A DNA stretch of 64,000 bases from Opitutales bacterium (GCA_963692525.1 OY829953.1:4420720-4484719), one strand, 5' to 3'. Counted from the stretch's first letter, positions 4,898 through 64,000 are shown. Notes: generated by a model from the sequence alone, not told the origin. Numbers and translations: made by a program.

Positions 4898-5008
4898 TTT
4901 GTCATTGCGAGTCACAACGCGACGAAGCAATCCAGGGGACTGAACTTACGCAATAGACAGCCTCCTGGATCGCCGCAGTCGGCTTCGCCTTCTTCGCGAG
5001 GACAAAAG
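4898..5008. repeat. Hairpin element of the 'gtcattgcgag / caatccagg' family (short form)
   Basis: Left arm 'ttgtcattgcgagtcacaacgcgacgaagcaatccagggg', loop of about 26 nt, right arm 'ctggatcgccgcagtcggcttcgccttcttcgcgaggacaa'. Confidence 0.7.
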
Positions 5009-5088
5009 AATACGTTCGAAAATCGAAAATCGACATATCTCTTATGACATCATCTTCAGATCCGAAGGATACAACGAGAGGACTGCGC

Positions 5089-6819
5089 ATGGATCCGATC
5101 GAGTTTGAAGTCATGCGAAGCGCGTTCAACGCGGCGGCGGAAGAAATGAGCGCGGCCTTACGCAAAACTGCTTACTCAACAAACATCAAGACGAGAGCTG
5201 ATTATTCCTGTGCGATCTACGATAAAAAGTTACGCGTCGTTGCCCAGGCTTTTACGCAACCTATTCATTTGGCATCGATGACACGCATGATACCGGCGGC
5301 GGTAGGTCAATACGGTGCAGAGAAGTTGTCACCCGGTGATGGAATCGCGATGAATGATTCCCACAACGGCGCCATGCATCTGAACGACATCGCGATCATT
5401 GTGCCCTTGTTCTATAAGAACAGACTGACGGGGTACACGGCGGCGGTAGCACACCATGTTGATATCGGCGGCATGGCTCCGGGCGGGTTGTGCCTTTCAA
5501 CCGATATATATCAAGAGGGTATCATCATTCCTTCAACACAGATTCTTCGTGAAGGGAAAATTATTGATAACGTCTTTAACTTAATCGTCGCCAACATCCG
5601 GTCTCCCAAGCAAATGGCCGGTGACCTGCGCGCTCAAGTCGCCTCGACAATGCTGGGTCAAAAGCGTGTCTTTGAGATCCTCGAACGATTTGGTGAAAAA
5701 GCGATCTTCAGCTTTACCGATGAACTGATTGGCTATACCCAACGTTGGACGAAGAGTGAGATATTAAAACTACCTGAGGGAAAACATTGCGCTGAAGGTG
5801 AAATGGACGATGACGGCATTACCGATCAGCCGATCAAACTCGTCATGCAAGCAGAGGTTAAAGATGGAAGGGTGAGCTTTGACCTGACCGGATCCGACAA
5901 GCAGCGCCCCTCACCGATGAATGCTAATTTAACTTATTCCTATTCCGCCGTATCCTATGTAGTGAAGTGTTTAATTGATTCTGAAGTTCCGGTAAACGCA
6001 GGGTTCTATTCACAAATCGATGTCCATGCCCCCGAAGGAACAGTTGTAAACGCGCTGCATCCCGCGGGTGTTGTCGGTGGAAACGATATATGCCTGCGCC
6101 TTGTCGATCTCGGCTTCAAGGCATTTTCGGCTGCAATCCCGGAGAAGGTCGTCGCCTGCAGCAAAAGTATGGTTTGTAACATGGGGTGCGGTGGAGTTGA
6201 TCCGCGCTCAGGTGACTACTATACTTTCATGGAAACCCTTGCCGGTGGTTACGGTGGACGACCTACCAAAGACGGCCTCGACGCCATACAACCTCATATC
6301 CAGAACACGGAGAACTCGGCTATTGAGGAAACGGAAAACAACTACCCCATGCGCATCACACGCTACGAGTTGGTTCCCGACTCTGATGGTGCAGGTAAAT
6401 TTCGCGGCGGGCTGGGCCTCCGCCGCGATTGGCAGTTCCCTGATCACGAAACGACATTTACAATCATCGCGGACCACCGTAAAAAAGGACCCTGGGGGTT
6501 GTTCGGAGGCCAGAGTGGACAACCCTCCACTTACACGCGCAATCCGGAGGGAGAACATAAAGAACTGCCGTCCAAAATTACTCTCACCCTCAATGCCAAT
6601 GACACTATAAGTTATAAGACACCCGGCGGTGGCGGGTATGGCAATCCACTCGAACGCAACCCCCTCGCGGTGCTCGAGGATGTTATCGATGGTAAAGTCA
6701 GCGCGCAGCGCGCCCGCGAAGTATACGGTGTGGTCATCGCTATCGACCGACGAGAAGTCGATGAAAATGGAACTACGAAGTTGCGAGAAGAACTTCAAAA
6801 ATCGCAAGAAGCACGATGA
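5089..6819 (+). CDS. hyuB: Hydantoinase B / oxoprolinase family protein
   Basis: Long ORF. MDPIEFEVMRSAFNAAAEEM is a typical HyuB N-terminus and 'gagagga' lies about 10 nt upstream; ATG 5044 is an alternative start. It overlaps hyuA by 4 nt (ATGA). Confidence 0.85.
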   Translation: MDPIEFEVMRSAFNAAAEEMSAALRKTAYSTNIKTRADYSCAIYDKKLRVVAQAFTQPIHLASMTRMIPAAVGQYGAEKLSPGDGIAMNDSHNGAMHLNDIAIIVPLFYKNRLTGYTAAVAHHVDIGGMAPGGLCLSTDIYQEGIIIPSTQILREGKIIDNVFNLIVANIRSPKQMAGDLRAQVASTMLGQKRVFEILERFGEKAIFSFTDELIGYTQRWTKSEILKLPEGKHCAEGEMDDDGITDQPIKLVMQAEVKDGRVSFDLTGSDKQRPSPMNANLTYSYSAVSYVVKCLIDSEVPVNAGFYSQIDVHAPEGTVVNALHPAGVVGGNDICLRLVDLGFKAFSAAIPEKVVACSKSMVCNMGCGGVDPRSGDYYTFMETLAGGYGGRPTKDGLDAIQPHIQNTENSAIEETENNYPMRITRYELVPDSDGAGKFRGGLGLRRDWQFPDHETTFTIIADHRKKGPWGLFGGQSGQPSTYTRNPEGEHKELPSKITLTLNANDTISYKTPGGGGYGNPLERNPLAVLEDVIDGKVSAQRAREVYGVVIAIDRREVDENGTTKLREELQKSQEAR

Positions 6820-8900
6820 GTGACTACCGAATCGGTGTCGATATAGGCGGTACTTTCACCGATCTCGTGATGATGGATGAAGCGACGGGAAATTTACGCC
6901 TGATCAAAATGTCGAGTACGCCTCACGATCCATCGATAGGTTTTATGAATGTGACTGAACGGGTTCTCAAGGAATCCGCTATAGACCCGGCGCGTGTCTC
7001 CTACCTGGTCCACGGCACCACAGTGGCGACAAATACGATCATCGAAGGAAAAGGAGCCAAGACAGGCTTTATTGCAACCGAGGGATTTCGCGACGTCTTT
7101 GAGATTGGCCGGCAGATCCGTCCCACGCTCTATGACATTTTCTGTGATAAACCAAAGCCATTAATCCCGCGCTACCTTTGTCGTGAAGCACCCGAGAGGT
7201 TAGATTATGCCGGGGATGTTTTGAAGCCTCTGGAAACAGAGCGTGTCCGCGAAGTGATTCGCCAGTTAAAGGTTGAAGGCGTGGAGTCTATCGCCGTTTG
7301 CCTGCTTCATGCTTACGTCAATGCCGAGCATGAAAGACAGGTGAAGGAAATCATCGACGTAGAGATGCCAGAAGTATTCGTGTCGATCTCTTCAGATCTA
7401 TGCCCGGAAATGCGTGAGTATTTTCGCGCCAGCACGACGGCGATCAACTCACTCCTGATGCCAATCGTTACCCGTTATCTCGGCCAACTGGAAAACCGAC
7501 TTGAGTCTCTGGGGGTTAAAGCCGGACTGCACTTAATGACTTCCGCCGGCGGCATGTCATCCTCGGACGTAGCCCGCAAAGAACCCGTTCACCTGATCGA
7601 GTCGGGGCCGGCAGCGGGAGTTATCGCTTCGACCTTCATCGGTAAGATGGCGGGCGTTGATAACCTTATCAGCTTTGATATGGGCGGGACGACAGCAAAA
7701 GTGGGTTTGGTTGAAGACGGTATGCCCAAGGTCGCACCCCACTTCGAAGTCGGAAGCGCAGCCGTGGCTGACAACCGGGCTGCCGGTTATCCCGTCAGGA
7801 CCCCCGTCATCGACCTCGTTGAGATTGGCGCGGGCGGCGGCAGCATCGCATGGGTCGATCCGGGAGGTGCGTTGCGGGTCGGTCCTCGAAGCGGCGGTGC
7901 CGATCCCGGTCCAGCATGCTATGGCAAAGGCCAGAAAAATCCTTGTATTACCGATGCCAATCTTTTGCTCGGACGCCTTAACCCGGAATACTTTATCGGG
8001 GGGGAGCAGAAACTGTTTCCCGAGCTTGCCGAAACTGCAATTAAAAAACTGTCTGATCAACTGGGAATGAATGTCATCGAAGCGGCTGACGGAATCATCC
8101 AGATAGCCAACGCGAGCATGGTGGGAGCGATTCGCTTGATCTCGGTTCAACGCGGTTTTGATCCCCGTGAATTCGTCCTTGTCGCTTTTGGCGGCGCTGG
8201 TCCTCTGCACGCCAATGACCTCGCACAAGAATTGGAAATTCCAAAAATTCTTATCCCGATGAGCCCCGGTGTTACCTCGGCTTTGGGACTGCTCGTGAGC
8301 GATGTTAAACATGACTACGTACAAGCTAACATTGCACCGATGGAGACCGTAGACCTGCAGGCTAACAGTCGTATTTTCGAAGACCTTGAAACCCGGGCGC
8401 GACAGGTGCTCACTTCGGAGGATATCCCTGCATCTGATATATCTTTTCTTCGCTATCTCGACATCCGTTACATCGGTCAATCCTACGAATTAAAAATTCC
8501 CGTTGAGAATCGACTGCTTGAACCGGATGATAAAGAATCAATCAATGCCGCTTTTTTTAAGGAGCATGAACGGGCTTACGGCTACGCCACCGCAAGTGAA
8601 CCCACGGAAGTCGTCAACTTGAGGTTAACGGCAATCGGCTCAATCAGTAAACCGACATTGCGAGAACTGGAAGCAGGTGACGGTGACAGCTCGGGTGCGG
8701 TTAAATCCAAACGTCCGGTCTACTTTTCAAAGCTGGGGAAAAATGTTACCTGCAAGATATACGATCGCTATAAATTAAAAGCCGACGATTGTATCGACGG
8801 CCCTGCTATTGTCGAAGAATTCGATTCCACGGTCGTCATCCTACCCGACTACTTCGCAAAGGTGGATCGTTTTGGTAATTTATTTATAGAGGAAAAATAG
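6816..8900 (+). CDS. hyuA: Hydantoinase A / oxoprolinase family protein
   Basis: 694 aa. The N-terminus YRIGVDIGGTFTD is typical of the family and the gene is translationally coupled to hyuB. Confidence 0.9.
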   Translation: MSDYRIGVDIGGTFTDLVMMDEATGNLRLIKMSSTPHDPSIGFMNVTERVLKESAIDPARVSYLVHGTTVATNTIIEGKGAKTGFIATEGFRDVFEIGRQIRPTLYDIFCDKPKPLIPRYLCREAPERLDYAGDVLKPLETERVREVIRQLKVEGVESIAVCLLHAYVNAEHERQVKEIIDVEMPEVFVSISSDLCPEMREYFRASTTAINSLLMPIVTRYLGQLENRLESLGVKAGLHLMTSAGGMSSSDVARKEPVHLIESGPAAGVIASTFIGKMAGVDNLISFDMGGTTAKVGLVEDGMPKVAPHFEVGSAAVADNRAAGYPVRTPVIDLVEIGAGGGSIAWVDPGGALRVGPRSGGADPGPACYGKGQKNPCITDANLLLGRLNPEYFIGGEQKLFPELAETAIKKLSDQLGMNVIEAADGIIQIANASMVGAIRLISVQRGFDPREFVLVAFGGAGPLHANDLAQELEIPKILIPMSPGVTSALGLLVSDVKHDYVQANIAPMETVDLQANSRIFEDLETRARQVLTSEDIPASDISFLRYLDIRYIGQSYELKIPVENRLLEPDDKESINAAFFKEHERAYGYATASEPTEVVNLRLTAIGSISKPTLRELEAGDGDSSGAVKSKRPVYFSKLGKNVTCKIYDRYKLKADDCIDGPAIVEEFDSTVVILPDYFAKVDRFGNLFIEEK

Positions 8901-8901
8901 A

Positions 8902-10074
8902 ATGGAGAATACAGCCGATGCAGTAGTGATTGGCGGTGGCATTATGGGAGCCAGTATCGGACATTTCCTGGCGAAAAAAGGTTTTGGTAAAATACTGTTA
9001 TTTGAAAAGCGGAACCTGGCTGCTGTCAGCACCGGTCACTCGGCAGCACATGTCCGGACTTACTACTCCAACCCGGTAACAGTCCAACTTGCCTGGCGCG
9101 CGGTACAGATGTTTGAAAATGACCGTGAAGAACTCGGAGGGGATTGCGGGTTTCAACAGGTGGGATTTCTCACGGTTTTTGGTGAAAAAAATTCTGCACC
9201 CGGGAAACACGTCCTTGAGATGCAGAAGGAATACGGTGTCGAAATCGAAAATATTTCGACTAAGGTGATTAGTGAACTCGCGCCACAAATTGATCTCGAC
9301 GGTGTCGTCGGAGGATTATACGAGCGTCGATCAGGGTATGCCAATCCGGTGAAAACGACCCGCTCGCTCGTCGAGCGGGCAGCGGAGTGGAGACTGAAAG
9401 CTTACGAAGGCGTTGGCGTCAAAGAGATTCGACTTCAAGGTGATCGCGTAAGCGGAGTCGTTCTCGAGACTGGTGAAACCATCGAGACTAAAGTTGTCGT
9501 GAACGCAGCCGGACCCTGGGGTCGACAAGTTGGATTTACGGCAGGCATTAACAACTCCATACGCTGGAGCAGGGAAACTGACATGATCCTGAAAACACCT
9601 GCTGACTTCGGTCCCATTCCGGTCTTTTCAGACACCGATTTAAGGATGTATCTTCGCCCGAACGGTAGTGACGAGATTTTAGCCGGACTTGGCTGGCCCA
9701 AAGAGATCGAACCCCTCGATATCGACGAGTACGACCCAAACCTTGACGAAGATTCACGCGCTCGAATTGAAGCTGTGTTATTTAAGCGGATACCCGCCCT
9801 TCGCAAGGCAAGCTATGTTCGCGGATGGGCATCGATCTACACTATCACCGACGACTGGCATCCCCTGGTCGGGGCGGAACCCGGTCTCGAAGGGTATTAT
9901 GCTTTTTTCGGGGGATGCGGTCATTGCTTCAAGCTATCGCCACCCATTGGTGAATGTCTTGCCGACGTAATTACAGGTAGCACTCCGAAGATTGACATCA
10001 GCCCGTTCCGGCCGAGTCGATTTCTCGACGGAGAACCCCTCACCTCGGCATGGGGCGGTGGAAACCGGGCGTGA
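8902..10074 (+). CDS. FAD-dependent oxidoreductase (DAO / sarcosine-oxidase-beta-like)
   Basis: N-terminal dinucleotide fold VVIGGGIMGASIGHFLAKKGF. It starts 2 nt after the hyuA stop. Confidence 0.85.
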   Translation: MENTADAVVIGGGIMGASIGHFLAKKGFGKILLFEKRNLAAVSTGHSAAHVRTYYSNPVTVQLAWRAVQMFENDREELGGDCGFQQVGFLTVFGEKNSAPGKHVLEMQKEYGVEIENISTKVISELAPQIDLDGVVGGLYERRSGYANPVKTTRSLVERAAEWRLKAYEGVGVKEIRLQGDRVSGVVLETGETIETKVVVNAAGPWGRQVGFTAGINNSIRWSRETDMILKTPADFGPIPVFSDTDLRMYLRPNGSDEILAGLGWPKEIEPLDIDEYDPNLDEDSRARIEAVLFKRIPALRKASYVRGWASIYTITDDWHPLVGAEPGLEGYYAFFGGCGHCFKLSPPIGECLADVITGSTPKIDISPFRPSRFLDGEPLTSAWGGGNRA

Positions 10075-10116
10075 GGGGAGAATCGATTAATATGTTATAA
10101 TTTAGCTTCTTCTACC

Positions 10117-10366
10117 TTTTCGTCTTCGTCCGCATCTGCGTCAGTGTCTCTTTGTCATTGCGAGGGAGGCTATCAGCCGACCGCGGCAATCCAGGGGGAT
10201 GTCTGTTGTGTAATTACAGTCCCTAGATATTAGAGTTCACTCTAAGCTGGACGAATCCTCAATGGAAAGATCTGAGTTGTGCTTGGCAATTTAAGACACA
10301 ATGACTATTCGCCTGGATTGCCACGTCGCGTTGCTCCTCGCAATGACAATTGGGACGAAGACGAAG
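10117..10366. repeat. Nested palindrome: 'acgaagacgaag' outer arms around a 200-bp 'gtcattgcgag / caatccagg' element (X arm + ... Y arm -)
   Basis: Outer arms are 'cgtcttcgtcc' (10121-10131) and 'ggacgaagacgaag' (10353-10366). Inner arms are 10151-10203 and 10301-10350. The same element is inverted at 38491-38722. Confidence 0.8.
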
Positions 10367-10389
10367 ATTATTATGAATCAATATTATCC

Positions 10390-11301
10390 CTAAACCAAAG
10401 TATTCTCAACGGAACCGATAATCCCCATTTTCTGCGCCAGCAACTCCACTTCTCTTAAATGCCAATCGTAGGCGACACGGTACGGGGGCCTGACGATTAC
10501 ATGGTCAATGACTCCCTTCCATTTAAGAATATGTTTCATCGTGGAATAATTGTAAGGCAGGAGTTGTCCCCCATAAGCGATCATCGGTAACATCTGTTCC
10601 ACGAAATAGTTTCTTGCATCTTCCCATTTTTCTTCTTTTACCAATTTGTGCAACGCGACCTCGCGTTCGGGCATAACCGCGGCAGACCCCGCGACGACCC
10701 CGTCACTCCCCGCGCCATATGTAATCAAGGTGTACATATCCGACCCGCATAAACAGGGAATAGTTAATGCCTCCGTTTTCAGCGCATCGAATGAACCAAC
10801 ATCACCGCTTACTTTCATCGCCACGATACGATCACAGGAACGAACTATGGGCAGAACATCTTTTTGTATGTCGAGACTGCCATTGTCAGTCATATCATAA
10901 ATCATGACTGAAATTTCATCTGCCATTTTCAGAAAAAACGAGCGCAGGTTCTGGTAGGATTTCTTTTTAACCATCGCAAAACTGGCACCCTGCTTTGCAG
11001 CGATCCTGGCTACTTTTATCCCTTCATCCAGATCGACCGAAATCGCTCCCAGGCCTACAGGAACCCGACCATTTACATGTTCAACTACGTGGCTTATCAC
11101 CTGCTCGATTTCATTGAGGTTCAGGCCCTCAAACTCACCCGCTTTACCACAAGCGACAAGTCCATTTACTCCCGCATCGAGAACGTAATCAATCTGGCGA
11201 TTCATGCTGAGAGGATCAAATTTGCTCCCATCTTTATTAAAGGGTGTAAGCAGCAGCGTGTATACTCCACCCTTTAAATGAATATCTTTTTCGCTCGTCA
11301 T
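10390..11301 (-). CDS. Dihydrodipicolinate synthase / N-acetylneuraminate lyase family aldolase
   Basis: 303 aa with family-like blocks LTPF, GLVACGKAGEF and IVAMKVSGD (putative Schiff-base Lys). Confidence 0.8.
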   Translation of the reverse strand: MTSEKDIHLKGGVYTLLLTPFNKDGSKFDPLSMNRQIDYVLDAGVNGLVACGKAGEFEGLNLNEIEQVISHVVEHVNGRVPVGLGAISVDLDEGIKVARIAAKQGASFAMVKKKSYQNLRSFFLKMADEISVMIYDMTDNGSLDIQKDVLPIVRSCDRIVAMKVSGDVGSFDALKTEALTIPCLCGSDMYTLITYGAGSDGVVAGSAAVMPEREVALHKLVKEEKWEDARNYFVEQMLPMIAYGGQLLPYNYSTMKHILKWKGVIDHVIVRPPYRVAYDWHLREVELLAQKMGIIGSVENTLV

Positions 11302-11404
11302 CGTATATTTTCGTGTGAATTAAATTGCATCAGTGACAGATAACAGTCCAAGTTAAAAACGCCATGTTTATTAAATCAACCCATTAAGTTTCGGACTGAT
11401 TCTT

Positions 11405-11538
11405 TTTGTCATCGCGAGGCTGATTGTCAGCCGTGGCGATCCAGGGGAATATCGGACGCATATTGTAAGCCCCCTGGAATGGAAGATGTCGCTACGCTCG
11501 GTAGCGGCAGTCGGCCACGCCTCCTTCGCAATGACAAG
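11405..11538. repeat. Hairpin element of the 'gtcatcgcgag / cgatccagg' family carrying a 25-nt module insertion
   Basis: Same element as 50311-50421, but with 'ggaagatgtcgctacgctcggtagc' (11481-11505) inserted in the right arm. Confidence 0.8.
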
Positions 11539-11790
11539 ATTGAATAATGATGGGAGAAGACGCTCTGAGAAAAAGTAATGGAGGGCCACGCTCCGTCGTG
11601 GCCGTTAATTTTAAAATTAACCCTACATATCTTATTATAGGAATATAGAAAAAGGTTATATTAAAGAAATAAAGGGACGAAGACGAAGCTGTTTCGATAG
11701 TAGGTCACTCATCTTCTCATTCACGCATATCCCTTTTGACTTTTTGACTATTATCATGTGATTTTAGGTTTTAGAGATGGGAGATAAATT

Positions 11791-13569
11791 TTGAAAATTG
11801 CGAGTTTTGTACGGGATGGAGAAATCGATTGTGGGCTGGTCGACGGTGATCAGGGTTACCGGGTTTTTGACAATCACCCTGTAATCGGCAGCTTAAACTC
11901 CGAAAGCAGAATCTTCCACCTCCTCGGTCTATCGCCTGAAGAGAGAGATCGAGTCGATGAGGAGATGAAGGGTGCACCACTGATTTCTAGCAGTGAAATC
12001 AAACTGCTTCCCGCCATTCCTCACTGTCCGCTTTATATTTATAATCATGCGAATAATCCAACTGTATGGAAGCGGCAGATAAACAGAGAGTGGGAAGTCA
12101 CGCGATTGCCCTATATGCGGATCAGATCCTACAATTGCTTCAGCGGTGATGGGTGGGAAATTCCGATACACCCCGGGACAACGCTGTCTTGTGGGGCCGA
12201 GCTGGGTGTCGTGATCGGCCGTGAAGCCTACCGGGTTCCCCCCGAAAAAGCCGTGGAGCATATCGCCGGCCTCGTCTGTCTGAACGACAACTTCATCGAA
12301 GGTGATCACGAAGCATTCATCGACAACTCATCACCTGAGTCGGAGATGCACCAACACCAGGGTCTGCACGTTCTTTTTAAAACCGGTGATGGTAACGGCG
12401 GAATGGGACCCTGGATAACAACCGCTGAAGAATTTGAAAAGGTCATTGAAAACCGTTTACAACAGCAAGCATCTGATCGTTATCGGAATGTCCATGCCGC
12501 ATCCTGGATCTATGACAAAATGATGTGGACAAAAATAAACGGAGAAATCTGTGACGAGGCTTATACCGGCACCTATCTCTTCGGTGCGGAGTGGATGATT
12601 ACCTACCTCTCTCGATTTATGACCTTGCCCACAGGATCTATTATCGGCCTGGGAGCAGCGGGTTGGGACGGCGTGCACTTGCCCAGCATGGATGAACCGG
12701 GAGCAGCGTTTGAGGTGGCGGTCGAGTTACAGGGTGTAGGTGCATCCCGCACGACGGTCAGAAGACAAGCTGTCGATGAAGCAAGTGAGAGTCCCTTTAT
12801 TAAAAACATTACCGCTGCCGGTCTCAATCCTTCAAAGGCTATAATAAAACGCCCGTGCCGTGCGCTCTGGGTTCAACGCGGAAACAATCCCGAATCGGAT
12901 CCGGGTCTCCCCGTGACCGGTTTAAATCCTATTCTCTTTCCCACGACCGCATTGAAAGAAGATGCCAGCCCTATTATCCTTCCCCCTCACGCCACAAGTA
13001 TTCATCTTTCCGTCCAGGTTGCCGGAATTGTCGGCCCCGGAACACTCTATGGGCTCGGCAGTGACGGGCGGAAAATTAATGAAGAGGAATGTATTGAAAG
13101 GATCTCTCTTTTCGTGTCGGTAAGAGATACCTCGCTCATAGATGCGATAAAAGATCCATTCCCCTATGAAATGCGTGCAGCATATTTTTTCAGTTCTTGT
13201 GCTGACGGATTTTTCAGGCTCGGCGATCCCCTCCCCTATAAAGATATTGTGGACCTTTCAGCACAGACTATAAAGATGTCACTCCCTGGAATTGGGGAAC
13301 GCAATTGCAGCATAGCTGATTACCGTTTCGGGTTTTCAGAGATGCTCGCGATGATCAGCCGGACGATCACCCTATTTCCCGGTGATGTTGTCTCCCTCGG
13401 AGCGGCGGGCGCAGAAATTGTAATTCCGTCAGACTCGAAGATAGAAAAAGTGGAGAACAACGACGATAATGGAGAAGGCATTTTATCAGTCGACTCTTCC
13501 TGGGGCGCAACGATGCGTTTGACATTTGACGATCAGAGAGATTCCCGGTTTTTGGAAGTAAGGAGATAG
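11791..13569 (+). CDS. Fumarylacetoacetate hydrolase (FAH) family protein, apparently two tandem FAH-like domains
   Basis: 592 aa with a TTG start. MKIASFVRDGE.. is a typical FAH-family N-terminus. Blocks GAELGVVIGREA..LNDNF (domain 1) and ILFPTTAL..VQVAGIVGPG (domain 2). Confidence 0.7.
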   Translation: MKIASFVRDGEIDCGLVDGDQGYRVFDNHPVIGSLNSESRIFHLLGLSPEERDRVDEEMKGAPLISSSEIKLLPAIPHCPLYIYNHANNPTVWKRQINREWEVTRLPYMRIRSYNCFSGDGWEIPIHPGTTLSCGAELGVVIGREAYRVPPEKAVEHIAGLVCLNDNFIEGDHEAFIDNSSPESEMHQHQGLHVLFKTGDGNGGMGPWITTAEEFEKVIENRLQQQASDRYRNVHAASWIYDKMMWTKINGEICDEAYTGTYLFGAEWMITYLSRFMTLPTGSIIGLGAAGWDGVHLPSMDEPGAAFEVAVELQGVGASRTTVRRQAVDEASESPFIKNITAAGLNPSKAIIKRPCRALWVQRGNNPESDPGLPVTGLNPILFPTTALKEDASPIILPPHATSIHLSVQVAGIVGPGTLYGLGSDGRKINEEECIERISLFVSVRDTSLIDAIKDPFPYEMRAAYFFSSCADGFFRLGDPLPYKDIVDLSAQTIKMSLPGIGERNCSIADYRFGFSEMLAMISRTITLFPGDVVSLGAAGAEIVIPSDSKIEKVENNDDNGEGILSVDSSWGATMRLTFDDQRDSRFLEVRR

Positions 13570-13576
13570 GAGATTA

Positions 13577-13712
13577 GTCAAAACGTCAAAAGGTCAAAAA
13601 GTTGAAGACGATTAGAGTATAAATGCGATCTTAGAATGGGATTAATCTTTCTTTAAATGACGTATCAGAGCAGCATCTACCTTTTGACTTTTTGACCTTT
13701 TGACGTTTTGAC
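13577..13712. terminator. Perfect 26-bp inverted repeat of TTTTGAC words between convergent genes (candidate bidirectional terminator or processing stem)
   Basis: 'gtcaaaacgtcaaaaggtcaaaaagt' (13577-13602) is the exact reverse complement of 13687-13712. The loop is 84 nt. Confidence 0.75.
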
Positions 13713-13720
13713 CCATTGCA

Positions 13721-16999: not shown

Positions 17000-17000
17000 T

Positions 17001-17418
17001 GTGCTTAGCCATAAAAAGTTAGCCACAAGAGACATGAGAGGCACAAGATTAAATTATTTCAGTAGAGCGGTCCAACATCTTTCATTCCAGAGGCAGTCAT
17101 TGTGATTACGAATACTAGTCTTTGCACTAGAACATGGGTAACTTAATATATAGTGAAGACAGGCAAACGTCTACTGAACGAAGTTTTACATCCCGGGACT
17201 GTGGTTACGCAACAGACATTCCCCTGGAGTGGAAGATGTCGCTGCGCTCGGTAGCTTCGTTGTTTCACTCCTCGCAATGACAATAGTGGGGCGGGCTGCC
17301 TGGCTCTCCGACTTGAAAGATGTCGTTCCGCTATTGCGGAACTCGGAACTGGTCCTCAGGCCTTCCGGCCATTTGGCTTTCTCGCCATCTGGATGTCAGG
17401 CCTTCCGGCTTTCTATTC
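17001..17418. repeat. Composite of repeat modules
   Basis: 'tagccacaagag..aggcacaag' words (17001-17048); a half 'caatccagg/gcaatgac' arm with an inserted 'ggaagatgtcgctgcgctcggtagc' (17212-17285); a hairpin module (17312-17352); 'ccttccggctttc' words (17353-17418). Confidence 0.7.
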
Positions 17419-17796
17419 CTAACCGTAAGCACCGTGTTCAAGAAAGCCGAGCAGGCATTTAAGCCTGGGGTTGGCGTCCTTGTAGATTTGCTCGGGCATC
17501 GTGTAATTCATGAAGGGAAAATATTTATGTCCGATAAATCGGCGGGCATAGGAAACCTGGGTAATGTAACGATTCTTATCAGTGCGGTTAGGATTAGTTC
17601 TGAGTTGGTCATCGGGTTCATTGCCGGCTGAATGGTTATTGTCTATCGCCCATTCGAATTCGGCTTTCAACTGGGAAACATGAGCTTCGGTCAGAACATT
17701 TTTCAGGAAGAGGAAACCCTGGCGGTTAAAGGTGTCCACCCATTCCTCGATCTGTTTGGGATCGAGTGGGTAGTTGGATTCAAAGCGCTGGGACAT
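17419..17796 (-). pseudogene. N-terminal fragment of a PhyH-like (phytanoyl-CoA dioxygenase family) gene
   Basis: 125-aa ORF. Its start (LDPKQIEEWVDTFNRQGFLFLKNVLTEAHVSQLKAEF) resembles PhyH N-termini. It ends before any HxD motif, and the stop abuts a word array. Confidence 0.4.
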
Positions 17797-17816
17797 GCCG
17801 ATTTCGGATTTCAGAT

Positions 17817-18150: not shown

Positions 18151-18206
18151 CATTTTACTCGAGCGAATCGACGAAAAAACTTAGAAGATTACAGATTGGG
18201 AAAAGT

Positions 18207-49249: not shown

Positions 49250-49257
49250 ATTACTGA

Positions 49258-52288: not shown

Positions 52289-52305
52289 AGATTACTTTTT
52301 TTAAG

Positions 52306-52676
52306 AGTCAAAAAGGGAGATGCGATTATGAGTGTAAGCGAAAATGCGGTAATGCGGTAATTTGGAAAGAATAAACCGCGAATAGACACCGATATATATA
52401 AGAATAAGATTTAGGAAATTAGAACTCAGGAATTCAGGAAATGAGTGGAGAATATTATAGAGTAGAATATGATTGAACAGCAGAGACGCTGAGATCGAAG
52501 AGAATACAACAAGGGTTATTTTATATGAAACACGATACTATTAATTTTTTAAATAATTATTTTACTCTCTAATTATTTGTGCTCATTGGTGTTCATTCGT
52601 GGTTTTTTACTTGTATTCCTGAGTTCTTAAGTTCCAAATTTTCACTCATTTGTTTTTTGTGCCTTTTGTGGCTATA
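52306..52676. repeat. Composite element (copy a of the 'ggaaagaataaaccgcgg' family) plus paired word arrays
   Basis: 52364-52520 is homologous to 56724-56890. 'agaactcaggaattcaggaaa' (52421-52441) faces 'attcctgagttcttaagttcc' (52615-52635). 'actctctaattatttgtgctcattggtgttcattcgtggt' matches 23799-23870. Confidence 0.75.
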
Positions 52677-52740
52677 TCTTCTATACACCGCGAACTCCGT
52701 GTCTTCATGTAGAAATCTTTGTCGTTCTTTTCTTTTGACT

Positions 52741-56599: not shown

Positions 56600-56999
56600 C
56601 CTCCAACGGAGGGTAAAATGACAATGCGATTGTGCGTAAAAGCGTACCGAGGGCAAAGTCCGCCTGTCGTCCATAGCCTCGTGCGACGGTTGGGCATCCT
56701 CAAATGCTTGTATACGGTAATGTGGAAAGAATAAACCGCGGATGGACGCGGATTAATACGGATATAATATAAGAATAAGATTTAGAAATTTAGAACTCAG
56801 GAAATCAGGAAAAAAGAAGATAATATTACAAGTAGAATATAATTGAACCGCAAAGCCGCTGAGATCGCTTCGCTCGGGAAGGGGTTATTTCCTCATTCGA
56901 CTTTCGACCTTTGACTTTAGACTCCTCTAAAACAAAATCCGCGCATATCCGCGTAATCCGCGGTTATTGATTCTTTATTTCCTGAGTTCATGAGTTCCA
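56600..56999. repeat. Composite element (copy b of the 'ggaaagaataaaccgcgg' family), itself a nested palindrome
   Basis: 'aataaaccgcggatggacgcggatt' (56730-56754) faces 'aatccgcgcatatccgcgtaatccgcggttatt' (56936-56968). 'agaactcaggaaatcaggaaa' faces 'tttcctgagttcatgagttcc' (56977-56997). Confidence 0.75.
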
Positions 57000-57003
57000 A
57001 ATT

Positions 57004-58098
57004 TCACCTTAACCATTTTTCCAAAAACCGCAGGCCGGGTTCGATGACTACTTCATGGGTTCCTTCGTGGCAGAGAAATTCGACATTCTCCTTCAAGTCA
57101 AGCTTGTCATAGTGTTGGTATAACTTTTGAAATTCTTTTTCTTGTAAGGGCCACCAGCTGGTGGAATCTTTTTTACCTTCCGCTATCTGCAGTGCGCGTG
57201 GACAGACCATGCTCAATAGATTAGCGTCGGTAAATCCACCTTTAAACCAACCCGGTATGAGCAGGTGTTCTTCATGAGGGAGGAACCAACTACCGTAGTG
57301 TGGTGACTCTACGGTTATTTTTTCTAAGCGGTCCATAAAAAATGCACACATGATCGCCGCCTTTATCCTTTTGTCCAAAGCAGCTATGCACATCGTGTAG
57401 AGTCCGCCCAGTGATATTCCCCACATCCCTATTCGCTCCTCGTCAATCTCGGGCAAACTTAAAACATAATCCAACAATCTTCTTATTTTTCCCACCTCCA
57501 GACCAGTAATTGAACTGCCCACGAGCATACTCAATCGATGCACTCTGATCCGTGGAGTGGATTCGTTAATGCTTGCCGGCGCCAAGACAGCAAACCCCTT
57601 TTTTAATAACTCTCTTCCGTACCCATGATAGGCTTCTTCCTGCGAGTCTTTAAAGCCAAACACCACGGAGGGAGACCCCAGCATCCCATGCAGAGCGACA
57701 ACGAGTGGCAAGGGACCTGTCTTATTCTTTGGCAGAGCCAACACCGCTTTCGCCGTTAAGTCAGATTGCACATTAATCGATACCCACTCAGCTATCGCAT
57801 CATCATCTTCAAAAAAAGGTTCTTTTTCCGGATGAAATTCACTATCACAATTTATCTCCCCCATCGTATCACGCCAGCTATCTCTATAGGGATCCATACT
57901 TTTTTCATAGGCACCTGCGGATGTATAGTCCCACTCCCATTGAGAATTTTCTTCAAGTATCCTTTTACATTCAGAGACCACCCAGTTTTGATTTTCTTCA
58001 AGCAGTGAGGCCTGCAGTTCTTTATTCTGCTTTTGGATCTCGCTGTCGGAAATATTCATACTGTTATTCCGACTAGAGGATAAATTATTTTTAGCCAT
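57004..58098 (-). CDS. Alpha/beta hydrolase (dienelactone hydrolase / acetyl-esterase-like)
   Basis: 364 aa with nucleophile elbow GISLGG. Confidence 0.7.
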   Translation of the reverse strand: MAKNNLSSSRNNSMNISDSEIQKQNKELQASLLEENQNWVVSECKRILEENSQWEWDYTSAGAYEKSMDPYRDSWRDTMGEINCDSEFHPEKEPFFEDDDAIAEWVSINVQSDLTAKAVLALPKNKTGPLPLVVALHGMLGSPSVVFGFKDSQEEAYHGYGRELLKKGFAVLAPASINESTPRIRVHRLSMLVGSSITGLEVGKIRRLLDYVLSLPEIDEERIGMWGISLGGLYTMCIAALDKRIKAAIMCAFFMDRLEKITVESPHYGSWFLPHEEHLLIPGWFKGGFTDANLLSMVCPRALQIAEGKKDSTSWWPLQEKEFQKLYQHYDKLDLKENVEFLCHEGTHEVVIEPGLRFLEKWLR

Positions 58099-58117
58099 CG
58101 CAGGAATTAAAGAAAGT

Positions 58118-58350
58118 TAAATACGAATGAACACTAATAAACACGAAAACAATATTTCGAGAAAATTGAATAGCCACAAAAAGCACAAGAAAGAAAATTA
58201 AGAACTCAGGAATTTAAAAAAATAAACCACGGATAAACGCGGATGCAGTATTCTCTACTCTTTTCCTGATTTCCTGAGTCCTAAATTCCTAAATCTTCTC
58301 CTTATATCATATCCGTGTTTATCCGCGTCCATCCGCGGTTCATTCTTTCC
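58118..58350. repeat. Composite element (copy c, inverted) plus 'cacgaat' and 'atagccacaa' words
   Basis: The rc of 58262-58350 matches 56724-56812. 58118-58190 matches 23647-23730. Confidence 0.8.
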
Positions 58351-58383
58351 CTTATCCGCAATCCGGAATTGATAGTCATTCAG

Positions 58384-58857
58384 TCATTCCACGAGGGGTA
58401 ACCACTGAATATTCTTCAAATTCGCCCTTCTCCCAATTCCTTCAGGAGGTGAATAATTTCTGGCCAGGTAATCCAGGATAATAGTTTCATTATCACCCAG
58501 GTCCCAAAAATTCTGCGTTTCCTGCATCCACCGGATAGTACTTAACCAGCCGTCACGTGTTGCCCTATTTTGTGTGACGAGGAGAGATGAATGGCATCCC
58601 ATGCAGTTCGCCCTGACTTCTTCGAAACCTGAATCGATAATAAAGCCAGTGGTATCATCAATCCCTGGTTCTGCTTTTTCCATCTCTGGAGAGGTACTTG
58701 TGTTAACGATCAACACTTTATTTTCTCCAGATGGGGGGGAGCTTGTACTATTTTTATCGGTGAGGGGCTGTTGAAATAAATTTTTAAAAAAAACACCGTT
58801 TGAGAAAATGATCGCAACAACAATTAATGTACCGAACAAAAGCTTGGTTTTACACAT
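58384..58857 (-). CDS. Monoheme c-type cytochrome, probable partner of the molybdoenzyme
   Basis: 157 aa with an N-terminal TM/signal and a single CMGCH (CxxCH) site. It lies 7 nt downstream of the SorA-like gene. Confidence 0.6.
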   Translation of the reverse strand: MCKTKLLFGTLIVVAIIFSNGVFFKNLFQQPLTDKNSTSSPPSGENKVLIVNTSTSPEMEKAEPGIDDTTGFIIDSGFEEVRANCMGCHSSLLVTQNRATRDGWLSTIRWMQETQNFWDLGDNETIILDYLARNYSPPEGIGRRANLKNIQWLPLVE

Positions 58858-60240: not shown

Positions 60241-60510
60241 AGAAGAATTGCCACCAGTCGTCGTCCCGCAGTCGCGGGACTATGCCCGACAGGCATCGAT
60301 CGATATGCGAAATGCAGGGTTCCCGTCTTCGCTTCGCTTCGCCGTGACAGGCAGGGTTCGGGGTTCGGGGTTTAGAGAAGATAGATATACGATTTCCGAT
60401 ATCCGATATGCGATATGCGATATTCGAAGTATCGATAAGGTTCAACCCCTCGCAAATCGAATATCGAATATCAAACGTCGGATATCATTTCCCTCGCATA
60501 TCAAACATCA
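60241..60510. repeat. Composite: hairpin module, 'cttcgcttcgcttcgcc' words and unit U1 of the 'gatatgcgatat' family
   Basis: 'gtcgtcccgcagtcgcgggac' at 60258-60280. U1 at 60376-60510 is about 85% identical to U3 at 61906-62036. Confidence 0.75.
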
Positions 60511-61577
60511 ACTCCCCGTCTCCGTTCCTTCATCGAGCCAGGCGATAAACAATTTGTATCCCAGGGACAGGATTATTGCGCCGATAAACATGCCGACAAA
60601 TCCCGAGGTAATGAATCCACCAATCGTTCCGAGAAATATGACTAGCATCGGCACGGGTGCTCCTTTTCCAAGGAGGATCGGCTTGAGGAAACTGTCCGAA
60701 ATCATCACGATCACGAGGTATACAGTCCACAATATTGCCCCCAACAGTTCCATCGTAGAAAAGAGATAGATGATGACCGGAATGATCACCAGTCCCGGAC
60801 CGATTTGGATGATGGCGAGGATCAGGCATATCAGCGCCATAGACCCGCATAGGGCACACCCGCCAGTATAAAACCTATACCGGCCAATGTGGATTGAATA
60901 AAAGCAACACCCAGGATACCCTTCGCCACATTCTTGATTGTGACATTGCTTATCTCGGCAAATTCATCTCCGCGCTCACCCACAATCTTACGAAAGAAAT
61001 TTCTGGCGAATAGGGATCCCTTTTCGGATGTGGCTAATAAAATTCCTGCAATGATGATGGAAAGAATAAATTGCAATACCCCCAGCCCGGTTCCTAAGGC
61101 CGAATTAAGCATCATCTTACCAACAGCAGACAATTGTTTATCGTATTTCTCTAACGCCGCATCCAGGTTTTCAGAGGCAAGTTTCCATGCTTTATAGGTT
61201 TTTTCTCCTATCAGTGGCCAATCCGCCACCTTTTCACTTGGAAGCGGTAGATGGAATTCATTGTTTTCCAACTGCGTGCCAATGGTCCTCGTTCCGGAAA
61301 CAAGAGAATCAAAGAAGACATAGCTGGCAAGGAGGACAATAGCTAACAGGACGATAGAAATTATCGTCGCACTCAATTTACCCCGCCCCCCAATACGGAT
61401 TTTGAGTGTCTCATATAATGGCTTCAATATTACGGCAATGAGAAGCCCCCAAAGTACGGGCGTGAAAAAAGGAGTCAGGATCTGAAAGCACCAGGCAATC
61501 AGGGCCAATAAAAAACCAACACGGATAATTATGTCGACAACGGTTTGTGTGGTTGTGTCTGTTCGTGACTGATTCAT
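60508..61577 (-). pseudogene. AI-2E (PerM/TqsA) family transporter interrupted by a frameshift near 60835-60845
   Basis: ORFs 60831..61577 and 60508..60840 are consecutive parts of one transporter. The break falls at ..LAGVPYAGLW / ALICLILAIIQIGPG... Confidence 0.7.
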
Positions 61578-61620
61578 ATATGCATCGTCAGTTTGTCAAC
61601 GAGTACGGAGAGGTCAATAT

Positions 61621-62036
61621 TAAGATAGATATACGATGTTTGATATACGATATGCGATGTAAGCTATGCGATAATGCGTATAAGCGTGAATGAGGTAATG
61701 CGGATTTAACATCACTCAATCCGCCATCGAAAATCGGATATCGATAAGATAGATATGCGATATCCGAAGTAAGAAAGAAATCTCCAACCCTTCACAAATC
61801 GAACGTCGGATATCAAACGTCGGATATCAAATCCCTCGATACGCGGTCATGCATATATGCGTGAATGAGGTTATGGGGATTTAACATCACTCAATCCGCC
61901 ATCGATAAGAAAGATATACGATTTAGGATATCAGATATATGATATTCGAAGTATGGATAAGGTTCAATCCCTCGCACATCGAATATCGGATATCAAACAT
62001 CGGATATCAATTCCCTCGGATATCAAATCAATCGAT
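61621..62036. repeat. Tandem composite units (V, U2, V', U3) of the 'gatatgcgatat / atcggatatcaaac' family
   Basis: U2 at 61745-61840 and U3 at 61906-62036. There is a ~45-bp direct repeat 'gcgtgaatgagg.ta.tg.ggatttaacatcactcaatccgccatcga' at 61683-61730 and 61859-61903. Confidence 0.8.
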
Positions 62037-62042
62037 AGACTC

Positions 62043-63113
62043 TCATGCACTCGTCGGATCGGCAACGACCATGTAAACCACGTCGCTGCCCGCGTAAAAG
62101 GGGCGATAATAGGTCTCTGCGTAGACAAAATATTCGGTGTCTTTGATCTTCTTGGTAACGGTCCCCTCGGGTAAGGTGTCGACCGTGGCGCCCACCGGGG
62201 GAGTTACAACTTCGTACGCAGGCACACCGCCTTCTTCTTCGGGGGGTTTTACATCGTAATAGGCTCCGTTCGAATAGCCGTATTGCTGGTCATTGACATA
62301 AACATTGGTAACCTGTGCAGGTGCGTTTTGCACCGTTGCGCCGACGGGTGGCGCAACGACTGTATAGCCGTCGCCAGTGGGTGCTGGTGAGTAATAGCTT
62401 CCATTGGAATAGTAGTAGGTATGGTTTTCTACAACTACGACCTCGTTCTTCTCGGGAATGGATGCGATGGCCGCACCGAGGACGAGCCCACCAAAGAAGG
62501 CCCAAGCCGCGTCGTCGTTGCCCCAATAGCCGCCATGGTGATGGTGACCCCAGTAGTTGCCGTAGTCGTTAAAGTTGCGGTAGTATTCCTCGCGCGACCC
62601 GGTGCGTGACTCCGTTCGGTCGCTTCGTCCATCCTGGCGCGAATCGGTGCGATCGGTGCTACCCTCCTGACGATTTCCCTGCCGCTCCGTGCGGTCGTCG
62701 CCACGTTCTGTACGATCACTCGAACTATTGGAACGGTTCTCCGAACGACCGCTCGTGCGTTCGCTGGAGGCTGCGCTCGAACGGCTAGAGCTTCCCTGCC
62801 CTTGCGCATTGCTCCTGCGGTCCTGGGAAGCACCTCCACTGAACCCGCCACCGGAAAACTGGCCCGACGTGTTATAACTGCGCTGCGACGATGACGATGC
62901 CCGGCTCGACGAACCGGAGCCGAACCGGCCCTGCACAGAGCTTCCACCTCCGCCGCTACGGGAGCCACCTCCGCCACTACGGCCGCCGCCTCCACCACCG
63001 CGCCGTTGCGCCTGGGCAAAATCCATCAGCGTCACCGACGCCGATACGATAAGAACAACGGTCGTTAACGTGATGCGCCATACTCTTTTTCTTCTCATCA
63101 ATCCCAAAATCAT
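62043..63113 (-). CDS. Secreted or membrane-anchored protein with a ~150-aa Gly/Ser/Arg low-complexity region and a C-terminal Tyr-rich repeat domain
   Basis: 356 aa with an N-terminal hydrophobic segment. RRGGGGGGRSGGGGSRSGGGG.. is followed by DRTERGDDRTERQGNRQ... A HHHH tract is present. The motif YTVVAPPVGATV / YEVVTPPVGATV occurs twice. Confidence 0.6.
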   Translation of the reverse strand: MILGLMRRKRVWRITLTTVVLIVSASVTLMDFAQAQRRGGGGGGRSGGGGSRSGGGGSSVQGRFGSGSSSRASSSSQRSYNTSGQFSGGGFSGGASQDRRSNAQGQGSSSRSSAASSERTSGRSENRSNSSSDRTERGDDRTERQGNRQEGSTDRTDSRQDGRSDRTESRTGSREEYYRNFNDYGNYWGHHHHGGYWGNDDAAWAFFGGLVLGAAIASIPEKNEVVVVENHTYYYSNGSYYSPAPTGDGYTVVAPPVGATVQNAPAQVTNVYVNDQQYGYSNGAYYDVKPPEEEGGVPAYEVVTPPVGATVDTLPEGTVTKKIKDTEYFVYAETYYRPFYAGSDVVYMVVADPTSA

Positions 63114-63877
63114 GACGCCCTCCCTTTAATTTTTATCGGTTCGGCACGTACAGAGCCGGCGGGTAATTGCGCGGTGAAAAGAGCGTCCTCAAGCGGCGGG
63201 TTGGCCACAAATTCGGTTATTACGGTGGCATGTTGCGGTGCGCCTTCAAGCTCCTTATAAGTGACTACGATCTTACGCAGCACAGGATCGCCATCGGCGT
63301 CTATCCATAGTTGCCAGTCGACCGCATCGCCAACGAATAATAGGTGATGACAGGTGATTCCATCTGCATCATGGAGGCCCAGGTTACGTTGTTTGGATGA
63401 ACCATCTTGAAAAACCTGGCTAGCGTTTTCGCGCAGCAAGCTCGCCAGTGGTAGAAATAATCCGTAATCGTTCTCCAGTTGCTTCAATGCATCCTGAATC
63501 CGTGGAGCCGCATCCATCTGCATGTAAACTTTCTTCAAATGGTCGAGGAAGGTAACGGTCTTGCCGTTATACCACATTTCCTTAGCGCTCAGATCGTCGC
63601 CATAGTCAATATGAATGCCGTCGGGACGGCGGATGGAAAGGGTCGCTGCTCCGGCGAACTGCACCTTTGCGCCGTCGGACAGGACGTCGTCGAACACCTT
63701 TTCCGTATAGAGTGTAAAGGAGTCTAACGATAGCAGGTACGCTGCCATGGACTCCAGCAACGCACCGGGGTCAACCGGAGCGCTCGATTCTCCGGGTGCA
63801 ACTCTGACCATCAGGACGAGCGGTAGAACGATTAAAATAACAGTTAATTTTCTCATGGGCTGCCAGCTTGAATTCAT
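63110..63877 (-). CDS. Periplasmic LolA-like protein (DUF2092-like by eye)
   Basis: 255 aa with a signal peptide and blocks FTLYTEKVFDDV, RRPDGIHIDY and VDWQLWIDADGDPVLRKIVVTYK. Overlaps the next gene by ATGA. Confidence 0.55.
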   Translation of the reverse strand: MNSSWQPMRKLTVILIVLPLVLMVRVAPGESSAPVDPGALLESMAAYLLSLDSFTLYTEKVFDDVLSDGAKVQFAGAATLSIRRPDGIHIDYGDDLSAKEMWYNGKTVTFLDHLKKVYMQMDAAPRIQDALKQLENDYGLFLPLASLLRENASQVFQDGSSKQRNLGLHDADGITCHHLLFVGDAVDWQLWIDADGDPVLRKIVVTYKELEGAPQHATVITEFVANPPLEDALFTAQLPAGSVRAEPIKIKGRAS

Positions 63878-63940
63878 CTAATGCGCCATAATCAATACGG
63901 CGATCCATTGCATGGCAAGGCGGAATTTTAACCCCTCGGA

Positions 63941-64000
63941 GATCGCAATAAATGATATATGATGTTTGATATTCGATATACGAAGTAAGCTATGCGATAA
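63941..64000. repeat. Start of another V-type unit of the 'gatatgcgatat' family (cut by the window end)
   Basis: 'gatatatgatgtttgatattcgatatacgaagtaagctatgcgataa' matches 61628-61675. Confidence 0.7.

Follow-up and report, generated by a model that had tools for sequence, protein, structure and literature searches.

The STRR (short tandemly repeated repetitive) sequences of heterocystous cyanobacteria are non-coding repeats with units of about 7 bp that form hairpins between genes; roles in transcript stability, translational coupling or termination have been proposed for them, and their function is unsettled (PMC2670836). Heptamers of the TAACTGA type are known from marine Beggiatoaceae, Cyanobacteria and Bacteroidetes, and in BOGUAY they consist of one word, found nearly always as direct repeats 5′ of start codons, with a single inverted case (MacGregor 2015, PMC4679880). 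Here we analyse a 64-kb stretch of DNA from an Opitutales bacterium (GCA_963692525.1, OY829953.1:4420720-4484719; hereafter the window, with positions counted from its first letter). Its spacers carry tandem arrays of 7–8-nt words together with two other module types: a hairpin resembling repetitive extragenic palindromic (REP) sequences, and composites of ~130–300 nt that include a GATAT ‘U1’ hairpin and a GAACTCAGGAA-armed element. Repeats of this kind have already been described: they are of the STRR/TAACTGA type and REP-like, combined in a mosaic resembling bacterial interspersed mosaic elements (BIMEs). What is added here is a new phylum and a quantification of polarity and turnover. An earlier note on this DNA had seen in the spacers a grammar more modular than that of known elements; this is not supported, as the building blocks are of described kinds.

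The likeness to STRR sequences lies in tandem units of ~7 nt, several word families, many non-coding loci and hairpins between genes, while the differences are the Verrucomicrobia (Opitutales) host, the presence of 8-mers as commonly as 7-mers, and the admixture of REP-like modules. Mazel et al. (1990) reportedly defined STRR1 as CCCCAGT, STRR2 as TTGGTCA and STRR3 as CAACAGT. With the consensus words in this form, GAACAGT and AAACAGT match STRR3 at 6 of 7 positions, and no tandem array of STRR1–3 or of TAACTGA was found in the window, nor did Rfam at gathering thresholds give any match there. The window matches a described family at the level of kind, an outcome that the note had named as speaking against it, but with no exact STRR1–3 or TAACTGA array and no Rfam family; since both consensus words and host differ, strict STRR membership fails. 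Neither the purine-first polarity nor the stop-codon placement quantified below did we find described for STRR. The TAACTGA repeats (PMC4679880) are similar in being intergenic heptamers of 2–6 copies that abut starts, in genomes with few Shine-Dalgarno (SD) motifs and with a patchy phylogeny, but differ from the repeats of the window, which have many words, frequent inverted pairs and a stop-codon bias. REP/BIME systems (REPIN, RAYT) of enterobacteria and pseudomonads are likewise intergenic mosaics of a hairpin module and motifs, polymorphic between strains and hot spots of recombination, with proposed roles in mRNA 3′-end protection and termination; the repeat material of the window, in contrast, is mostly tandem 7–8-mers and not palindromes of 20–40 nt, and there is no RAYT among its 49 open reading frames (ORFs). 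A GTAG/CGTC-type tag is not established for the module of the window. Possible parallels are NIME/Correia elements of Neisseria, BOX A-B(n)-C elements of pneumococcus and the Foldback elements of Drosophila: these are modular with one module iterated, and Foldback arms consist of short tandem repeats, but their units measure 20–150 nt, they are not known to be related in sequence to the repeats of the window, and Foldback is eukaryotic. A search of the literature on intergenic repeats of Verrucomicrobia or Opitutales returned nothing specific, and one on small dispersed repeats of cyanobacteria gave nothing useful.

Tandem arrays were called with Tandem Repeats Finder (TRF), and coverage was counted for periods 6–24. 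Unless relatives are named, results refer to the window; relatives and further PF05635 loci carry labels (L001, L002, L081, L087, L134 and L207–L226, among others). TRF returned 79 rows, 30 with period 7 and 24 with period 8, so the 8–10-nt words regarded as dominant in the earlier note are shorter than stated there. Units are repeated 2–6 times, imperfectly, with 66–100% match. All arrays listed in that note are present (13679-13713, 28048-28080, 36246-36271, 40384-40414, 21328-21354, 48630-48661, 25808-25843, 23586-23611, 41378-41400, 52422-52440, 56793-56812, 29268-29298, 40334-40364 and 60384-62027), and its count of about 25 array-built intergenic regions agrees with ours, as at least one array occurs in 25 of the 31 spacers of ≥100 nt. 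Its claim that arrays are confined to non-coding DNA is also supported: they cover 1391 of 9554 intergenic bases (14.6%) versus 346 of 54446 coding bases (0.64%), and ~0.4% of shuffled intergenic DNA. Nor are the words equally frequent inside the genes of the window, which the note had named, for the whole genome, as an observation that would speak against it. They are 7- to 69-fold denser in spacers than in genes, with intergenic enrichment of 27× for GTCAAAA, 11.5× for GTGAACA and 69× for GAACTCAGG. Altogether about 15 mutually unrelated word families are present. The tandem words combine a fixed core with 1–2 free positions (GTCAAAA-N, GTGAACA/GTAAACA, AATGCG-NN, GAACTCAGG, CACAAAAAG, CGATAT-N-C, CCRG-NNNN).

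Arrays are distributed unevenly with respect to genes. Their coverage is 19% in co-directional, 15% in convergent and 4.7% in divergent spacers, and the share of arrays located no more than 10 nt from the end of a coding sequence (CDS) is 27%, versus 10% expected. GTCAAAA follows the stop codons of five genes, its complement those of none; six start codons are preceded at 0–18 nt by an array end. The 49 credible ORFs (Pfam) are ordinary catabolic and transport genes, and no tRNA or tmRNA was found by a scan of the window. The sole strong tandem repeat within a CDS is a 21-nt repeat (×2.6) at 62944-63001 in a DUF6515 gene, with a period that is a multiple of 3. A consensus scan of positions 1-20000 for sigma-70 promoters and terminators gave counts at shuffle level and is uninformative; for TTGAC words read as tandem –35 boxes, no consistent –10 partner was seen by eye.

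Inverted pairs of ≥16 nt form 28 clusters in ~14 spacers, and seven pairs in the window are strictly array against array. Thus, convincing palindromes do exist, but fewer spacers contain them than the ‘nearly every long intergenic region’ of the earlier note. Four example palindromes fold at –49 to –59 kcal/mol (z-scores –5.0 to –5.9), more stably than any of 200 shuffles; against mononucleotide shuffles, the median z-score is –2.4 for spacers versus –0.03 for coding segments, with 8 of 30 spacers below –3. Of 26 inverted pairs, 23 have the purine-rich arm on the 5′ side (p 9e-5, a statistic that counts pairs from shared families, which are not fully independent), and the strict array-array test leaves no exception, at 7:0 for the window and 3:0 for relatives. 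Since an inverted repeat is identical on both strands, this purine-first polarity is independent of gene orientation. Such an order, with A-rich sequence first and U-rich sequence last, is how a bidirectional terminator is laid out. We conclude that the arrays are genuine features of non-coding DNA, that they are polar and that they form hairpins.

Several spacers illustrate this organization. Between the plus-strand gene 11791-13569 and the minus-strand gene 13721-17044, a 5′ arm of (GTCAAAAN)×3 at 13577-13602, 7 nt after the stop of the former, has 26 nt that are 100% complementary to the 3′ arm of (NTTTTGAC)×3–4 at 13687-13712, 7 nt from the stop of the latter; the region 13568-13722 folds at –49.2 kcal/mol (z –5.8). 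The (AATGCGNN) arm 25690-25722 is paired with a perfect (CGCATTCA)×4.5 arm at 25808-25843 (z –5.9). The spacer with the palindrome 23575-23927 (z –5.1) is nested, with outer ATAGCCACAAAAAGCACAAG arms at 23575-23623 and 23879-23927 and inner CACGAATGAACACGA arms at 23643-23670 and 23854-23881. With this case (23575/23927 around 23643/23881) and a second one (48583/49212 around 48630/49160), nesting is at least two deep, part of the way to the three levels given in the earlier note, while its description of recurring families able to pair in several registers is supported. At 45690-45873 the palindrome is built from the GAACAGT-type word family and contains no gene: GTGAACAGTGAG overlaps the stop codon at 45697-45700, (TTCACTG)×3.9 lies at 45847-45873, and solitary TTGCATC and ACCTAAA arrays occupy the loop. 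It is followed by a solitary (CACTTTT)×4.7 array at 45909-45941, which stops 7 nt short of the start codon at 45949.

One word family, GAACAGT, forms the terminal arrays of a cassette that contains a PF05635 gene and is found across phyla. Gene a of the window (21370-21801, minus strand; 143 aa, Pfam E-value 6e-31) encodes a bAvd-like four-helix-bundle (4HB) protein; it has an AGGAGG ribosome-binding site to itself and occupies a palindrome loop. The arms of this palindrome are an (AGTGAAC/AGTAAAC) heptamer array at 21328-21357, 30 nt of which are 93% complementary to 21821-21850, and an (ACTGTTC/ACTGTTT) array at 21820-21850. Homopolymers A8-G9 (C9-T8 on the gene strand) abut the outside of the downstream array at 21310-21327; the version in L208 is shorter and interrupted. 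Gene b (48679-49113, minus strand; 144 aa) is 80% identical to gene a and by sequence search is near the pentameric PDB entries 2RLD and 2GSC. One of its arms is the (AGTGAAC)n array 48630-48666, and two (ACTGTTC)n arrays follow at 49127-49160 and 49219-49255. Around the cassette runs an outer inverted module of the GGAAGATGTCG...CTCGGTAC type at 48583-48624, whose partner at 49171-49212 (42 nt, 88% complementary) lies between the last two arrays. An (AGTGAAC)n...(ACTGTTC)n palindrome thus encloses each of the two genes, and the homology between the copies takes in the arrays. The AGGAGG ribosome-binding site of gene a contrasts with the host leaders inspected, which are without SD motifs, and gene b is not at the orthologous site in L081. 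The earlier note had stated that the window holds no transposase, RAYT-like gene or integrase; Pfam on the 49 ORFs agrees, but these two array-bracketed genes had been overlooked.

Further PF05635 loci were picked by protein similarity alone. Inverted 7–8-mer arrays bracket the gene at 14 of 15 scored loci, and in addition at L207; collapsing orthologues and near-identical clusters leaves 12 independent genomic contexts, 11 of them with the bracket. Scored for flank complementarity, PF05635 genes have a median of 22 versus 7–8 for 78 control genes, only two of which reach 17. The orthologous cassette of L208 has arms that are 100% complementary. In L209, where the context is different, the bracket constitutes the only arrays in 8.4 kb except two weak rows inside neighbouring genes, and the gene of L210 is likewise bracketed. 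Homologues in deltaproteobacterial metagenome-assembled genomes (MAGs; L211–L220) are flanked by long AGTGATC/ACTGATA (ACTGATT) arrays, which are of the TAACTGA type; in L207 the word is GGTATTT/AAATACC. Five plasmid genes (Tolypothrix, Leptolyngbya, Nostoc punctiforme, Geminocystis and Azospirillum) are bracketed by G-rich or A-rich words; one other locus, an Oscillatoria plasmid gene, instead has direct-orientation arrays on both sides. The bracket word shifts with divergence of the protein (GAACAGT, GGACAGT, GATCAGT/TAACTGA type, CAGGGGAG, GGGAAAA, GGACAGA, GGTATTT). At E ≤1e-20 the family counts at least 7924 members, and 4HB homologues are mostly on contigs of <3 kb. A tblastn search of 72,556 plasmids with the PF05635 protein gave matches that come nearly all from cyanobacteria, 21 of 40 being from Nostoc.

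The PF05635 cassettes resemble the intervening sequences (IVSs) of 23S rRNA of the Leptospira type, in which an ORF of the same family lies between inverted repeats and a long transcript stem is expected; such IVS stems are excised by RNase III, and the Pfam family takes its name from these sequences. They differ in lying between protein genes and in having inverted repeats that are tandem heptamer arrays. The window itself has no rRNA, and both genes a and b are placed between protein-coding genes, not inside 23S rRNA. PF05635-type genes inserted in cas operons are reported in one study (PMC3936711). Array bracketing of these genes is not mentioned in the papers on the family that were consulted or in the TAACTGA paper, and it may be described elsewhere.

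The host is a marine member of the Opitutales (Verrucomicrobiota), the sulfite-oxidase-like gene of which is closest to those of the Opitutales MAGs L001 (93% protein identity) and L002 (82%). Comparison with L208 (95% CDS identity) revealed ~3 extra 8-mers in arm 25808-25843 of the window and one heptamer more in array 21820-21850, each with the partner arm unchanged. Unit gains in one arm with an unchanged partner indicate slipped-strand mispairing. Other changes affect whole modules. The spacer 23557-23939 is wholly different in L208 from stop codon to start codon, with unrelated modules, and the 170-nt core of 56724-57005 is inverted relative to L001, one of the genomes with ~90% CDS identity (L001, L134 and L087, 90–92%). 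Spacer 58099-58383 is 285 nt long in the window, 75 nt with (GTCAAAAN)×4 in L134, and 1.57 kb in L001; the extra 1.57 kb of the latter (L001 11927-13500) contains an ORF-length stretch and several hairpin modules. At the site of spacer 50478-50558, L001 has a simple 4+4 GTCAAAAN palindrome, L087 has single proto-words, and the window has other modules. A 4-kb two-gene insertion is bordered by two copies of one composite element, PhyH is found at a different place in L134, and synteny with L001 stops at 60262, inside the U1 region. We conclude that the arrays change by slippage of units and by recombination at the level of modules, and that the spacers are breakpoints of rearrangement.

The window also contains large duplications, which we record as separate observations. 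Two tandem paralogue pairs with ~75–84% DNA identity have an array-rich spacer between the copies: 43133-45700/45949-48528, which are fusions of a Kelch/NanM beta-propeller with a sodium:solute symporter (SSF), L081 having one Kelch-SSF gene, and 21880-23556/23940-25628, which encode proteins of 558 and 562 aa without a Pfam match. An inverted duplication (1-3202 versus 33761-35974, ~30 kb apart) matches over 1165 nt (87% identity) and 685 nt (88%) and covers Ig-like (CHU_C-associated) surface-protein genes.

Distribution among relatives is patchy. L001 is array-dense, with 25 TRF rows in 21 kb, and arrays are also present in L208 and L134. In L081, whose M19 peptidase has 89% protein identity, and in L002 the spacers are plain and AT-rich, with arrays nearly absent, and some more distant contigs carry common modules. 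This coexistence of array-rich and array-free relatives suggests that the bloom is recent. A metagenome scan for GTCAAAAN×3 returned at least 120 contigs with a GC content of 0.27–0.66, some of them rich in microsatellites of period 2–4 and possibly eukaryotic; the word is thus not lineage-specific, and the scan says little on distribution. The same scan yielded the relatives L134, L156, L091, L117, L140 and L106. A single CCTTTT(T)[GA]AC(TC) word occurs 15–30 nt 5′ of orthologous ATGs in the window (52289-52320), L087 (1715-1750), L001 (18900-18930) and L081 (8190-8230 and 9970-10000). Possibly this word is a motif of leaders or promoters from which the TTTTGAC arrays arose by amplification.

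The REP-like module has the structure CCGAG-[TTCCGC N4 GCGGAA]-CGACATCTTCCA and is present in nine hairpin-type and four short-stem copies in the window, with more in relatives, where copies in common are at ~66–75% nucleotide identity. In its 7-bp stem 88% of cells are paired and one position is compensatory, a modest covariation, and the flanks CCGAG and CGACATCTTCCA are single-stranded and conserved. At 27886-28080 the module (CCGAG-TTCCGC-N4-GCGGAA-CGACATCTTCCA) is surrounded by direct arrays of the 8-mer CCRGNNNN, after which comes (CCTTTTGA)×4, and at 29268-29456 (GTGTTAA)×4.4 is combined with a module in reverse orientation. Within 33490-33756 the module is flanked by CCGGNNNN words, and 4 nt separate the end of (AAATCCG)×4.6 from the stop of gene 33761-35974. 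A further copy with (CTTTTTGA)×3.2 (36104-36271) is located just 5′ of a short-chain dehydrogenase/reductase (SDR) gene, and at 40207-40414 the module is accompanied by (CACCTAA)×4.4 and by (TTTTGACA)×3.9, with 6 nt between the end of the last array and the stop codon of gene 40421-41308. The spacer 50478-50558, 3′ of the SDR gene 50604-51404, is made of (CGCATTTC)×5 and (TTTTGACA)×2.4.

Among the composites, one of ~300 nt at 52307-52680 has GAACTCAGGAA-type arms (52406-52441 and 52607-52642) and AATGCGGT words. It has a copy at 56720-57005, in which (56724-57005) the arm pairs 56780-56818/56964-57002 and 56737-56754/56936-56953 are interleaved; GAACTCAGGAA-armed composites are also found at 58244-58350 and in L087 and L134. 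The mosaic spacer 58124-58389 contains AGTCATTC words that overlap the stop of gene 58384-58857. The U1 hairpin unit at 60376-60510, (GATATNC)n...(ATCGAAT / GATATCAAAC)n, folds at –53.7 kcal/mol (z –5.4). Further units of this type are located at 61614-61690, 61745-61840 and 61905-62036 (spacer 61614-62036, z –5.9), and another begins at 63947. Between U1 hairpin units sits an AI-2E family transporter gene (60508-61577) that is split into two minus-strand ORFs, 60831-61577 (profile positions 4-224) and 60508-60840 (225-326); the split corresponds to a frameshift near 60840 and thus to a pseudogene or a sequencing error. Another dispersed hairpin family, TTGTCATTGCGAGG...GACGAAGCAATCCAGG, occurs at 4899-4974, 10148-10353, 17247-17288, 38487-38727 and 50337-50393 as well as in L091 and L117, and presumably resembles a repeat seen in many bacterial phyla.

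Our preferred reading, held with middling confidence, is that the spacers are populated by lineage-restricted, fast-turnover, selfish or semi-selfish non-coding repeats (7–8-nt arrays, the REP-like module and composites) that evolve by slippage and recombination and form polar palindromes with a putative stem role at the transcript level. Arrays lengthen and shorten in place by slipped-strand mispairing, in a single arm each time, and recombination between dispersed copies swaps, inverts, duplicates or deletes modules or whole spacers, which makes these spacers breakpoints of gene order. A typical palindrome has its purine/A-rich array first, often <10 nt after a stop codon, and its pyrimidine/U-rich array second, often near the next start. 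NNNCAGT heptamers (GAACAGT here) represent the terminal inverted arrays of the PF05635 cassette, with an architecture kept across phyla, and gene-less palindromes may be its non-autonomous relatives, as MITEs (miniature inverted-repeat transposable elements) are to insertion sequence (IS) elements. Once transcribed, palindromes are predicted to fold into multi-register stems of 20–30 bp with U-rich 3′ arms. Judging from their layout and by analogy with the stems flanking 23S rRNA IVSs, these may act as bidirectional terminators, 3′-end protectors or RNase III sites. Such a role would account for palindromes being tolerated at the 3′ ends of genes and scarce in promoter-only spacers.

A number of observations weigh against this reading. 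Judged as intrinsic terminators, the palindromes fit in their A-rich to U-rich polarity and 3′-end bias, but their stems are A-U-rich and their loops 30–470 nt long, far from canonical terminators. Canonical terminators with a GC-rich stem, T-run and A-rich 5′ flank are present at about 706-756 and 3223-3269, in array-poor spacers, so the organism also uses ordinary terminators. The polarity statistic is weakened by the shared families noted above. A role at 3′ ends leaves unaccounted for the many solitary arrays (for example, 45764-45791 and 45909-45941) and does not cover arrays directly 5′ of start codons. The loop of the L001 GTCAAAAN palindrome is native spacer common to L001 and L087, and arrays of this family have no common flanks; both points argue against simple transposition. 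Finally, the PF05635 gene is tied to only one of the ~15 word families of the window, and L001 is array-rich over 21 kb without a PF05635 gene.

It is possible, but in our view unlikely, that all modules are non-autonomous transposons of the MITE/REPIN type, with the transposase encoded outside the window (a RAYT for the REP-like module, IS enzymes for the composites) and the tandem words as subterminal repeats. In its favour, ~300-nt composites with inverted GAACTCAGGAA arms recur (52307-52680, 56724-57005, 58244-58350, L087 and L134), and the conserved flanks, paired stem and diverged copies of the REP-like module in relatives point the same way. Filled and empty sites, however, show no target-site duplication; Pfam on the 49 ORFs of the 64 kb gave no transposase, integrase or RAYT; GTCAAAAN arrays lack common flanks and, in L001 compared with L087, surround native spacer without having brought a loop of their own; and units are gained in one arm only. 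Membership of the MITE class fails: inverted arms are present, but duplication at filled versus empty sites and IS elements in the window are both absent. A transposon carrying its transposase is rejected, Pfam giving no transposase among the window ORFs. CRISPR is excluded, in agreement with the earlier note, by units of 7–8 nt that follow head to tail without spacers and by the absence of cas domains from the window. An assembly artefact is rejected because independent assemblies, at least three in number (L001, L208 and L209), agree in this architecture.

The position of array ends 5′ of six start codons, in an organism whose inspected leaders are without SD motifs, could also mean that the arrays act in cis as regulatory sites bound by one or more proteins that recognise RNA or DNA, in a post-transcriptional or transcriptional network as proposed for TAACTGA, in which start-adjacent words tune non-SD translation. 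Words with a constant core and 1–2 free positions (GTCAAAA-N, CGATAT-N-C) are compatible with this, as is the CCTTTT(T)[GA]AC word that orthologous leaders, including those of the array-free L081, have 15–30 nt 5′ of ATG, and a precedent is argued for the TAACTGA repeats (PMC4679880). We nevertheless consider it doubtful. Orthologues in genomes of 90–95% identity differ in word or in copy number or have no array, which is hard to square with a conserved regulon; the word families are ~15 and unrelated; arrays are most frequent after stops and in convergent spacers; and close relatives manage without them. Still less probable is that the arrays are a neutral by-product of slippage-prone replication or repair in this lineage, growing like microsatellites under weak selection without function or mobility. 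The one-arm unit gains, the perfect ×4.5 array and the limitation of arrays to non-coding DNA would follow naturally, and long simple-sequence repeats of bacteria are reported to prefer a 7-nt period (Mrazek 2007, as summarised in PMC4679880). Slippage by itself, however, leaves unaccounted for the same words at many unlinked loci, the complementary pairing with purine-first polarity, the 3–4-fold depletion in divergent spacers and the cross-phylum bracketing of PF05635 genes.

A bolder extension of the preferred reading, which we offer as speculative and rather improbable, is that PF05635 proteins are the cognate trans-acting partner of STRR-type 7–8-nt arrays. The gene and its purine-first arrays would then constitute a widespread unrecognised cassette, either a mobile element or a self-insulating intervening sequence acting at the RNA level, and the gene-less palindromes of cyanobacteria, Beggiatoa and Opitutales would be its non-autonomous derivatives. 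Array bracketing in Verrucomicrobia, Deltaproteobacteria, Azospirillum and plasmids of Nostocales joins two orphan phenomena and names one candidate protein, and the Nostocales plasmid matches fall in the organisms in which STRR sequences were defined. For practical work, array spacers break short-read assemblies, and arrays beside a conserved small gene might pass for CRISPR loci. For decades STRR-like repeats have lacked a known origin or function. Their young, dense bloom in an unrelated phylum, where sister genomes span identities of 95%, 92%, 90% and lower and are in part array-free, offers a natural time series for the origin and spread of such repeats and for the reshuffling of gene order. 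If the partnership with PF05635 proteins is true, it would provide a function both for the heptamer repeats described around 1990 and for the orphan PF05635 family.

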